9,516 nt of DNA from a virus (IMGVR_UViG_3300029722_000071:1-9516); one strand, 5' to 3'; positions 4,111 to 5,745 are shown, numbered from the stretch's first letter. The notes: generated from the letters alone by a model not told the origin. Numbers and translations: made by a program.

Positions 4111-4138
4111 GAAAAAACAAAACCCGCCGAAGCGGGTT
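4111..4138 (-). terminator. Rho-independent terminator of the hok transcript
   Basis: Plus 4121..4138 aacccgc-cgaa-gcgggtt (7-bp stem, UUCG tetraloop on the minus strand) preceded by gaaaaaacaa, giving a U-rich tail on the minus-strand RNA. An additional 9-bp hairpin ggcgaggga/tccctcgcc lies at 4179..4200, where an fbi-like hok 3-prime element would be expected. Confidence 0.75.
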
Positions 4139-4206
4139 AAGTGCGGGTGCGTTGAGGATGCCTGACTCATCAGAGGTGGCGAGGGATTTCTCCCTCGCCA
4201 GGTCTC

Positions 4207-4362
4207 TTACTCCTCAGGTTCGTAAGCTGTGAAGACAGCGACCTCCGTCTGGCCGGTTCGGATTCGTACCTCGCAGAGGTCTTTCCTCGTTACCAGTGCC
4301 GTCACAATGACGGTAATACAGATGACGATCAGGGCGACTAACATCGCCTTTTGCTGCTTCAT
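4207..4362 (-). CDS. hokD: Hok/Gef-family type I toxin (51 aa), HokD/RelF-type
   Basis: Product MKQQKAMLVALIVICITVIVTALVTRKDLCEVRIRTGQTEVAVFTAYEPEE is nearly identical to E. coli K-12 HokD/RelF as I recall it. ATG at 4362 with AAGGAG Shine-Dalgarno; the track ORF extends in-frame to an upstream ATG at 4419. Confidence 0.9.
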   Translation of the reverse strand: MKQQKAMLVALIVICITVIVTALVTRKDLCEVRIRTGQTEVAVFTAYEPEE

Positions 4363-4409
4363 AGCCTGCTTCTCCTTGCCTTTCGGCGTGTAAGAGGCTA
4401 ACCTACATG

Positions 4410-4486
4410 TGACTAGCATGAAATTGGCCTCAGATTAATGTTAAGCGTCCTGCAAGACGCATAATGTTAACTGGGGCTTTTCTCTG
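4410..4486 (+). ncRNA. candidate Sok-like antisense RNA (approximate boundaries)
   Basis: Plus-strand region antisense to the hok leader around the upstream mok-like ATG: long-range stem gcctcag (4427..4433) / ctggggc (4471..4477) enclosing hairpin gcgtc-ctgcaa-gacgc (4445..4460), followed by uuuucucu. Position matches where sok lies in plasmid R1 hok/sok. Promoter not confidently located. Confidence 0.35.
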
Positions 4487-4535
4487 TCTGCCTTACGGTG
4501 GCATGCCCGAGGCAGACAGCCTCAAGCACCCGCAG

Positions 4536-4566
4536 CAATTCTACTTAACTCTCGCTTTACCGCAAA
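4536..4566 (-). promoter_or_regulatory. candidate sigma70 promoter of the hok mRNA
   Basis: On the minus strand: -35 TTGCGG (plus 4560..4565), 16-bp spacer, -10 TAGAAT (plus 4538..4543), about 7 nt before a 5-prime sequence GGUGCUUGAGGCUGUCUGCC that resembles the R1 hok mRNA 5-prime end as I recall it. Confidence 0.4.
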
Positions 4567-4577
4567 CCGTTTTTACC

Positions 4578-4599
4578 CGATATGGGAATTCCCATATCG
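4578..4599. promoter_or_regulatory. 22-bp perfect palindrome just upstream of the hok promoter; candidate protein-binding site
   Basis: cgatatgggaattcccatatcg is a perfect inverted repeat (11-bp arms, no spacer), about 12 bp upstream of the candidate -35. Not followed by a U-run on either strand, so not a terminator. Confidence 0.3.
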
Positions 4600-4607
4600 T
4601 AATGAAT

Positions 4608-4712
4608 TCAGTTCCCTAGTCGATCCATCAAAAACACAACCAGGCAGTAAACACCCACAACAGCAATAACAGCCAGCGCACCTTCCATTGCCAGTGAGAT
4701 ATCATCCGACAC
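4608..4712 (-). CDS. candidate small hydrophobic protein (34 aa) missing from the ORF track
   Basis: Minus strand reads AAAGGAGGGAAT-GTG TCG GAT GAT ATC ... TGA, giving MSDDISLAMEGALAVIAVVGVYCLVVFLMDRLGN: a strong Shine-Dalgarno 4 nt before GTG and one predicted transmembrane helix. Start codon uncertain (in-frame ATG at 4688 would give 26 aa). Confidence 0.3.
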   Translation of the reverse strand: MSDDISLAMEGALAVIAVVGVYCLVVFLMDRLGN

Positions 4713-4827
4713 ATTCCCTCCTTTGGTGTTAATCCCGGCGAACGCTTTTACCCACACCGACAAATAACATATACTAAAAAAGCGATAGCCATAGCAACGC
4801 CTGTAATTGCAAATGCTTCAGGCTAGG

Positions 4828-5745
4828 TCATTGGCGTACCTCCTTCGGCGGTTCTGGTAGCGGCATCCAGTGGGTTACTTTCGATGCCGGTTCTTCCCCA
4901 TTGTCAGTAACTGCCCACCATTTGTTTCTCGAACAATCGTAATACCCTTCGAAGGTATCGCACTCAGTCCAGCCGTAAGACTTACCCCAACACCAAACAT
5001 ACTGTTTATCGTTCGGCATTCGCTCACTACAGCTTATCCAACCATCCGGAGTTACCGGAGAGTTGCCCGATAGTGCATTCTGCTCCAGTGATGCTTTTAC
5101 AAACCACGCTGCCTGAACTATAACGCCATGAATCCAGCGCAAATCAGCATCGCGATCTTTCTTTTTCATCTTTTCGCCACTTAAGGCCTTGCTTATGTGG
5201 CTGCGTACCAGGTCTTCATGCAATTCCTTCGCCTCCTCAATGGTGAAACCACCAGGCAGAAGAGCCGGAGTTACCGGAGAGCTGGTTGACGCTTCCGGGA
5301 TTTCCCGAAAATTATTGGTTGACGAATTCTTGCTTTCCCGAAAGTTTCCGGACTGAAGCATGGCGGTGCGGCAGGCGTTCCATATTTCGGCAGCAATATC
5401 GCGCTCGCTATCGGTTAATTTGTACGTGGAAACATAGCCAGAGAGCATTTCTACGTTTTCCGGAGTTGCTTCTTCCGGCACTACCGGCGCTGGCGGGGCG
5501 GCAAATAGATATCCGCCAAAGTCAGGAAGCTCTCCAATGGCCTGTACGAACTTTTGTTTGCCTACGTCAACTCCTAATGGGTAATGAGCTATAATCTTTG
5601 CCACCGGCTCTGCTTCCAGCGATACCAGTGCAATTCGTGCCAGTTCTTCCGCTTCTTCTGCTGGCAGTACAACGTTGCTACCCGGTCCGTATGTTTCGCG
5701 CCACTGCTTGATTGTCAGCAGTCGCCCTTTGGTAATAGTGATCAT
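4828..5745 (-). CDS. DUF551 domain-containing phage protein (305 aa)
   Basis: C-terminus DGWISCSERMPNDKQYVWCWGKSYGWTECDTFEGYY...VTHWMPLPEPPK matches the DUF551 signature as I recall it. ATG at 5745 overlaps the upstream stop (ATGA). Confidence 0.8.
   Translation of the reverse strand: MITITKGRLLTIKQWRETYGPGSNVVLPAEEAEELARIALVSLEAEPVAKIIAHYPLGVDVGKQKFVQAIGELPDFGGYLFAAPPAPVVPEEATPENVEMLSGYVSTYKLTDSERDIAAEIWNACRTAMLQSGNFRESKNSSTNNFREIPEASTSSPVTPALLPGGFTIEEAKELHEDLVRSHISKALSGEKMKKKDRDADLRWIHGVIVQAAWFVKASLEQNALSGNSPVTPDGWISCSERMPNDKQYVWCWGKSYGWTECDTFEGYYDCSRNKWWAVTDNGEEPASKVTHWMPLPEPPKEVRQ
5046..5062. repeat. 17-bp perfect direct repeat, copy 1, inside the DUF551 gene
   Basis: ccggagttaccggagag at 5046..5062 and again at 5265..5281, 219 bp apart (in frame); both copies encode the S-P-V-T-P peptide. 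Confidence 0.7.
5265..5281. repeat. 17-bp perfect direct repeat, copy 2, inside the DUF551 gene
   Basis: Identical to 5046..5062. Confidence 0.7.

Follow-up and report, generated by a model that had tools for sequence, protein, structure and literature searches.

The small hydrophobic open reading frame referred to here as ORF-B, located on the minus strand of a 9,516-nucleotide stretch of viral DNA (IMGVR_UViG_3300029722_000071:1-9516, hereafter the window), is probably a genuine gene of Escherichia coli and Shigella lambdoid prophages, encoding a one-helix accessory membrane peptide that is neither a type I toxin nor a part of the adjacent hok/sok system. It is already known, as a RefSeq hypothetical protein with published translation evidence. 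Since the window contains 125 ORFs of at least 25 aa, the length of ORF-B proves nothing by itself, and the coding case consists of its conservation, its substitution pattern, and published ribosome profiling.

ORF-B lies between a DUF551 gene and the hok/sok cassette (Table 1) and is translated as MSDDISLAMEGALAVIAVVGVYCLVVFLMDRLGN. The first-pass annotation had described a 34-codon GTG frame behind a strong Shine-Dalgarno (SD) sequence, upstream of the hok locus and between the DUF551 gene and the hok promoter, with a short distance to the start codon. All of these points hold on the minus strand from 4712 to 4608, the spacing being 4 nt from GGAGG, or 5 nt when counted from AGGAG. The SD is kept in all relatives, with the variant AAGGGAGGG in one lineage, and the start codon is ATG, at the same position and behind the same SD, in every haplotype except the window's own. 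The peptide, which is essentially a single transmembrane helix, reaches a peak 19-residue hydropathy of 2.72 at residues 11-29; its N-terminal tail (MSDDISLAMEG) is acidic and its C-terminal tail (MDRLGN) is short.

Table 1. Features at and around ORF-B, in window coordinates
Feature	Position	Strand	Details
ORF-B CDS	4608..4712	minus	34 codons; GTG 4712-4710, TGA 4610-4608
Shine-Dalgarno of ORF-B, AAAGGAGGG	4716..4724	minus	4-5 nt 5' of the start codon
ORF-A remnant	4748..4831	minus	27-aa one-helix ORF, intact in relatives, M(N/I)WPEAFAITGVAMAIAFLVYVICR(W/C)G
Block of SD, ORF-B and hairpin	4568..4742	minus	175 nt; not in phage 933W (alignment)
11-nt direct repeats, GGGTAAAA(G/A)CG	4743-4753 and 4568-4578	minus	spacing 175 nt; bracket the ORF-B block
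Perfect 22-nt palindrome, CGATATGGGAATTCCCATATCG	4578..4599	minus	9-bp stem, AAUU loop
hok/sok cassette	4357..4566	minus	Rfam RF01794 sok model 4357-4531, 117.6 bits
Inferred hok promoter	-35 TTTGCG 4566-4561; -10 TAGAAT 4543-4538	minus	17 nt between hexamers; hexamers read from the sequence
mok/hok frames	4207..4419	minus	hok CDS 4207-4362, HokD WP_000813267.1
DUF551 ORF	4828-5745	minus	305 aa, uninterrupted in the window; split by PGAP into partial pseudogene pieces 4828-5070 and 5269-5745

The evolutionary evidence was drawn from 80 IMG/VR loci collected via the peptide, 120 collected via the hok-leader pattern, and further ones obtained through protein look-ups. Across 15 haplotypes of ORF-B, neither a frameshift nor a stop was found, and the observed changes comprise 13 synonymous and 12 non-synonymous substitutions over 26.3 and 72.7 sites, respectively, corresponding to an omega of ~0.33 (binomial p=0.006), with 14 of the 25 changes at third positions. 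When the same changes were scored in the other two frames, the corresponding values were p=0.23 and 0.70. The comparison of frame conservation and Ka/Ks that had been proposed as a check on the small ORF thus came out in its favour. Selection on ORF-B is moderate, and it is weak in the diverged subfamily typified by phage Tritos (6 synonymous and 9 non-synonymous changes). Identity within E. coli and Shigella prophages ranges from 88 to 100%. A second candidate, an overlapping frame of 25-28 aa (4628-4714, minus), was rejected, as it displays no synonymous excess and is missing from several haplotypes.

The first-pass annotation had called the frame untracked, which is accurate with respect to its own list of ORFs and not with respect to RefSeq, where the CDS WP_001278450.1 (hypothetical protein) coincides exactly with 4608-4712 on the minus strand in a genome that aligns collinearly with the whole window and mismatches it at 13 of 9516 bases. 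Megablast of 4420-4830 against complete E. coli genomes showed that the same accession is annotated in strain S1-CAM-02-A and in O104:H4, and in prophage Sp6 of O157:H7 Sakai the gene is ECs_5710 (YP_009502606.1). The identical peptide occurs on approximately 984 contigs, where it is recorded as 'Uncharacterized protein', and 674 of 5426 complete E. coli genomes carry ORF-B in 1-5 copies each, which amounts to roughly 1470 copies. A full-text literature search with the accession, the peptide, XECs145, and ECs_5710 returned nothing from main texts, retrieved the peptide only from a supplementary table of PMC5597208, and found no published discussion of ORF-B function.

The publication in question reported XECs145, which consists of the ORF-B frame plus 20 N-terminal codons, as a novel translated gene of O157:H7 (Hücker et al. 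2017, PMC5597208; S2, S3 and S8 Tables). XECs145, ECs_5710, and WP_001278450.1 represent the same gene as ORF-B, sharing identical 34 residues and the same site between the DUF551 gene and mok/hok, whereas the window copy differs from ECs_5710 in starting with GTG instead of ATG and in having a stop codon in the upstream frame ORF-A (see below). In LB, XECs145 showed a transcriptome RPKM of 79.1, a translatome RPKM of 346.1, an RCV of 4.35, and a coverage of 0.99; the corresponding values were 121.3, 150.1, 1.14, and 0.84 in BHI, and 73.3, 1.1, 0.01, and 0.37 under BHI stress (PMC5597208). Its RCV ranks among the higher values of the published table, to be read with the caveat that O157:H7 Ribo-seq reads map to several near-identical copies and that the frame called there has 54 codons. 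The 20-codon extension that distinguishes XECs145 from ORF-B of the window reaches into ORF-A and has no SD. In the same study, the peptide was predicted to be an inner membrane protein with 1 TM, and the promoter was predicted to be weak (LDF 2.13). Ribosome profiling, another check proposed at the outset, therefore places ribosomes on the ORF-B frame in O157:H7 Sakai. The doubt that the frame might not be translated is largely answered by this published occupancy and by the ATG behind the same SD in other haplotypes, and the suggestion of a small membrane protein gains support from the single hydrophobic helix, the purifying selection on the frame, and the ribosome occupancy.

Beyond the close relatives, tblastn with ORF-B detected similarity at 39-41% identity in phages Tritos, Evi, and mEp460_ev081, together with a 46% partial match in HannyBb. 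Overall, these homologues encode 29-30 aa at 39-47% identity, possess their own SD, and lie directly 5' of the hok promoter. The Tritos-type homologues (29-30 codons, e.g., MVLVLKCALAIAAVMAIYCLAVVLMDRLSD) start with GTG behind GGAG(G), end approximately 10 nt before the hok -35, and have no gene annotation on that strand in the respective records. An exhaustive profile search of 1.84 billion representatives yielded 14 matches at E<=1e-3, nearly all of which are fragments or close variants of the E. coli ORF-B peptide, and no relatives outside the E. coli family; one match is a further variant, MLAALKGFVAILAVVAIYCLVVVLMDRLSD, which is again located directly 5' of hok and whose C-terminal half differs from Tritos mainly synonymously. 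No relatives were found in species-representative genomes. The core shared across homologues is A-(V/I)-x-x-V-(V/M)-(G/A)-(V/I)-Y-C-L-x-(V/I)-x-L-M-D-R-L-(G/S)-(N/D). Searches of Pfam, NCBIfam, PHROGs, and PADLOC with ORF-B, ORF-A, the Tritos-type peptide, the ORF-A/ORF-B fusion, and a 72-aa neighbour (the latter three described below) revealed no family match, the sub-threshold noise consisting of SecE, PTR2, and Cmr5 fragments; for ORF-B, there was no Pfam match at E<=10. The ORF-B family is thus extremely narrow, and genes of this sort, young ORFans, can be dispensable.

Such narrowness raises the question of whether the region is functionally coding at all. It could instead represent young prophage DNA that has spread, or DNA or RNA elements of the hok promoter, with the ribosome footprints reflecting pervasive translation. 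The occurrence of the family only in E. coli and Shigella prophages at high identity would fit such an explanation, as would the truncated Tritos-type remnants that lie beside an intact hok and the DNA similarity of the two ORF-B types, which runs a few bases beyond the stop as TGA(A/T)TT(C/T)AT. We nevertheless consider it unlikely: the synonymous excess is specific to the ORF-B frame, diverged homologues retain the frame, the SD, and the C-terminal YCLxVxLMDRL motif despite many synonymous differences, the overlapping 25-28-aa frame has been lost in several haplotypes and ORF-B in none, and the published RCV of XECs145 is comparatively high within its table (PMC5597208).

Alignment of 23 haplotypes revealed that ORF-B is the second of two neighbouring small hydrophobic ORFs. 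The gap that had been thought to contain a single small ORF does contain ORF-B, but it also contains a second hydrophobic frame, ORF-A, which the first-pass annotation had missed. The ORF-A peptide, which can also be written M(N/I)WPEAFAITGVAMAIAFLVYVICRWG, is 27 aa long, and its ATG shares bases with the stop codon of the preceding gene (cAATGA or cgATGA), which in the window is the DUF551 gene; through this ATGA overlap, ORF-A is translationally coupled to the upstream gene. Homology between the mosaic variants starts at the ORF-A ATG. With 27 synonymous and 23 non-synonymous changes (omega ~0.28) and an in-frame 6-nt deletion in one lineage, ORF-A resembles ORF-B in being under purifying selection, in encoding one helix, in belonging to the same cassette by the hok promoter, and in having Y-x-x-C/Y-C followed by R near the C-terminus, whereas the two have no detectable homology and ORF-A, without an SD of its own, relies on translational coupling to the gene before it. 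ORF-A is directly upstream at every ORF-B locus inspected and intact in nearly all, and it occurs alone in 28 of 115 hok loci. Annotations nearly always omit it, as they do beside hokW in phage 933W (L086, ~1420-1503). In the window, ORF-A has been inactivated by TAG at codon 3 (4825-4823), which is TGG in the collinear genome.

Relative to ORF-A, which terminates in ...TGG GGG TAA, the frame of ORF-B is -1, and it is open through the 35-nt spacer. Alleles with six instead of five G residues at the end of ORF-A (G6 vs G5) fuse the two frames into a 74-aa ORF (L210 1501-1725, L211, L212); they occur on 3 contigs representing 2 haplotypes, one of which was recovered from two independent sequencing runs, while G5 is present in 97 loci of all lineages. 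Other homopolymer indels also create ORF-A/ORF-B fusions (P0004, P0007). AlphaFold2 modelling of the 74-aa fusion from a single sequence predicted two helices, at 3-34 and 41-72, with modest confidence (pLDDT 71). The G6 alleles may represent homopolymer variation or a phase switch, and at most they provide a 'Rosetta stone' hint that ORF-A and ORF-B work together.

These fusions suggest a different gene model, in which the real gene encodes a 74-residue two-helix protein, slippage at ...UGG GGG UAA, either -1 ribosomal or transcriptional, allows the common G5 allele to be read through, and the 34-codon frame of the window is a C-terminal remnant left after a nonsense mutation. The open -1 frame across the spacer, the helical hairpin modelled by AlphaFold2, and the natural fusions created by G6 alleles and other indels are compatible with this model, and, judging from the sequence, a P-site tRNA-Gly on GGG that slipped by -1 along the G5 run beside the stop would regain perfect pairing. 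We regard it as highly improbable. G5 in 97 loci of all diverged lineages stands against G6 in 3, and assembly errors in homopolymer length could explain part of the G6 calls; furthermore, 933W-type phages, in which ORF-B is missing, use the same stop codon for ORF-A, ORF-B occurs alone in Tritos-type phages, the strong SD and the start codon of ORF-B are present in every haplotype, and the spacer substitutions (roughly 2 synonymous and 3 non-synonymous by manual count) display no clear coding pattern. The prevalence of G5 in all lineages, the retention of the ORF-A stop without ORF-B, and the existence of ORF-B alone in Tritos-type phages indicate that two separate genes are the ancestral and usual state.

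A more far-reaching version is that ORF-A and ORF-B constitute a split two-helix protein, switched between split and fused states by the poly-G tract (G5/G6) and functionally tied to Hok; the pair might, for example, tune Hok-assisted lysis or protect the lysogen membrane. If true, this would explain why more than half of the sampled lambdoid hok loci have small one-helix ORFs directly against the hok promoter, although we judge it to be very unlikely.

Comparison with phage 933W delimits the ORF-B unit. In this phage, there is one copy of the 11-nt repeat and no block, and ORF-A is followed directly by the hokW promoter. The ORF-B block is therefore, as expected of a moron, a discrete presence/absence insertion between conserved neighbours, and ORF-B moves about in a small cassette whose place is immediately 5' of the hok promoter. 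From its repeat borders, the block looks like an insertion or deletion at microhomology, or like a target-site duplication. The palindrome begins 9 nt past the ORF-B stop, contains an EcoRI site, and is conserved. Two C->T variants of the hairpin in relatives produce G.U pairs in the sense RNA and A.C mismatches in the antisense; such tolerance in the sense strand only offers weak evidence for a role at the level of the sense-strand RNA. The absence of a U tract sets the hairpin apart from canonical intrinsic terminators; it may mark or stabilise a 3' end. A scan near ORF-B detected neither a sense-strand sigma-70 consensus nor an intrinsic terminator, with only the hairpin, devoid of a U tract, after the stop.

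With regard to the relationship between ORF-B and hok/sok, the hok leader model starts (4531) 77 nt downstream of the ORF-B stop, and the inferred -35 is likewise downstream of that stop. A role of ORF-B as a leader peptide or uORF of hok, or as part of the hok transcript, was considered and rejected on the strength of this position. Among the 115 usable hok-bearing contigs, the region upstream of hok contains ORF-A only in 28, a Tritos-type ORF only in 20, ORF-A together with ORF-B in 15, and something else in 52; the last group includes approximately 19 contigs with a 72-aa hydrophobic ORF and 7 with only the last ~8 Tritos-type codons. The 72-aa ORF (MFKCNCTLIVGGIMKNALQFLFVAFWLF...) is strongly hydrophobic and is situated 137-356 nt 5' of the hok-leader pattern (L088, L090, L092, L099, L105, and others, ~19 loci); in PhiR42_1, the CDS annotated at this site is on the opposite strand. 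On the 7 contigs with remnants (L093, L097, L102, L108, L162, L157, and L163), the sequence ..LMDHLSD* is fused to unrelated DNA beside an intact hok promoter, and these remnants are recombination joints inside the Tritos-type small ORF. The reduction of the Tritos-type ORF to approximately 8 codons on some contigs implies that neither hok nor the phage requires the gene.

Of the window-type loci whose sequence extends far enough downstream, all 69 have hok after ORF-B. However, one lineage (L210-L218, haplotype ...VVLLMDRLGS) keeps ORF-A, ORF-B, and the hairpin and has no hok: beginning at the -10, the hok cassette has given way to two convergent genes, which encode 214 aa and 408 aa (PAPS_reduct/DUF3440). 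Comparison of ORF-B in this hok-less lineage with the main haplotype gives 8 synonymous and 3 non-synonymous differences (manual codon-by-codon count), so that ORF-B is still under constraint there. Moreover, between the window and phage Tritos, hok is ~98% identical (manual count) whereas ORF-B is only ~41-47% identical, indicating separate histories and a mosaic joint at the hok promoter. We conclude that ORF-B adjoins hok/sok without being one of its components. On the other side of the cassette, just 3' of hok, a sub-threshold match to IsrK, an sRNA of the Salmonella Gifsy prophage (RF01394), was observed at 4117-4198 on the minus strand (27.8 bits, gathering score 50, E=6.6e-4); this segment may be an E. 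coli prophage counterpart of IsrK.

The first-pass annotation had also raised the possibility of a second type I toxin-like peptide. In its broadest form, such a reading would make ORF-B a membrane-damaging type I toxin-like peptide or a Hok helper that acts in concert with hok/sok, being silent in lysogens and released upon induction or prophage loss. With 34 aa and one hydrophobic helix, ORF-B is a small hydrophobic TM peptide, as type I toxins are, and its location is suggestive: besides the consistent presence of hok after window-type loci, of 115 phage contigs with hok, 35 have ORF-B or a Tritos-type homologue right against the hok promoter, and the prophage hokW-sokW is a functional toxin system that aids phage release (PMC8621323). 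The peptide itself has no match to HOK_GEF (PF01848) or another toxin family, while the neighbouring 70-aa mok/hok frame carries PF01848 in a relative. A degenerate copy of the Hok helix was likewise sought by eye, and no convincing register was found in the alignment with ORF-B.

The expression signals likewise run counter to what marks a type I toxin mRNA. No promoter-like site was detected antisense to 4608-4740 in a consensus scan, which a weak promoter could escape, and the sole promoter-like site in 4150-5000 (4747-4775, plus) points away from ORF-B and occurs at chance frequency. This site consists of TTTACC, 17 nt, and TATACT, and a transcript from it would be complementary to ORF-A and the DUF551 3' end. 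Rfam finds sok only, beginning 77 nt 3' of the ORF-B stop; the RNA comprising leader and ORF (4540-4740) folds no better than shuffles (z -1.21); and the strong SD 4-5 nt from the start is unlike the translationally silenced mRNAs of type I toxins. In addition, ORF-B is highly translated in growing cultures (RCV 4.35, LB; PMC5597208), persists in the lineage that has no hok, and has a history separate from that of hok, as judged from their identities to Tritos. A toxin function is thus very unlikely, and the suggestion lacks support, there being no family match, antisense promoter, or RNA family for the frame, which moreover lies upstream of the hok transcript start, is well translated, and is kept without hok.

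The copy in the window fits a decaying prophage lineage, as seen from the ORF-A nonsense codon, the GTG start of ORF-B, the pseudogene flags on DUF551, and an IS21-family insertion in a sister genome. The 305-aa DUF551 ORF is probably a fusion of two DUF551 genes. At the edge of the window, a tRNA with anticodon CAT (20-95, minus) is called tRNA-Met by ARAGORN and tRNA-Ile in RefSeq, the latter probably being lysidine-modified. It belongs to an Ile-Arg-Arg cluster downstream of a Q-like gene and a DNA methyltransferase, an arrangement that is presumably typical of Stx-type lambdoid prophages.

Taken as an accessory membrane peptide, the ORF-B product would insert into the inner membrane, and the acidic N-tail together with the lone Arg near the C-terminus weakly favours an N-out, C-in orientation under the positive-inside rule. 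The gene would be co-transcribed with the phage early operon containing the DUF551 gene, with translation presumably initiated independently at its own SD. The peptide may represent a non-toxic 'moron'-like accessory small membrane protein that binds or modulates a membrane partner, probably with ORF-A as a two-helix unit.

Because ORF-B is already present in RefSeq and in a published translatome, the analysis adds no new element. What it contributes is an independent evolutionary argument that the 34-codon frame, as opposed to the longer XECs145 call, is coding, the recognition that the gene belongs to a pair of one-helix ORFs, one of which is still unannotated, including next to hokW in 933W, and a map of small-ORF shuffling beside the prophage hok/sok cassette. 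There is also a practical implication: in work on prophage hok/sok, which has been shown to aid Sp5 phage release, a construct covering the 'hok locus' may carry these translated membrane peptides along, and a deletion of it may take them out.

Two groups of small membrane proteins offer themselves for comparison. The Hok/Gef toxins (PF01848; HokD/HokW) are, like ORF-B, small and hydrophobic, with one N-terminal helix and a location in lambdoid prophages, and in this case they are directly adjacent. However, ORF-B shares no sequence or profile similarity with them and lacks the periplasmic C-terminal domain; it is also devoid of a mok-like overlapping frame, a folded leader, and a Sok-like antisense RNA, and it is translated in growing cells. 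The second group comprises small membrane proteins encoded on the E. coli chromosome, which Hemm et al. reportedly found in 2008 through ribosome-binding-site models and conservation, and of which AcrZ, MgtS, and YohP are examples. ORF-B differs from this class in being prophage-borne, mosaic, restricted to E. coli and Shigella, and without homology to any member, yet it shares with the class a length of fewer than 50 residues, one TM helix, a strong SD, omission from early annotation, and evidence of translation.
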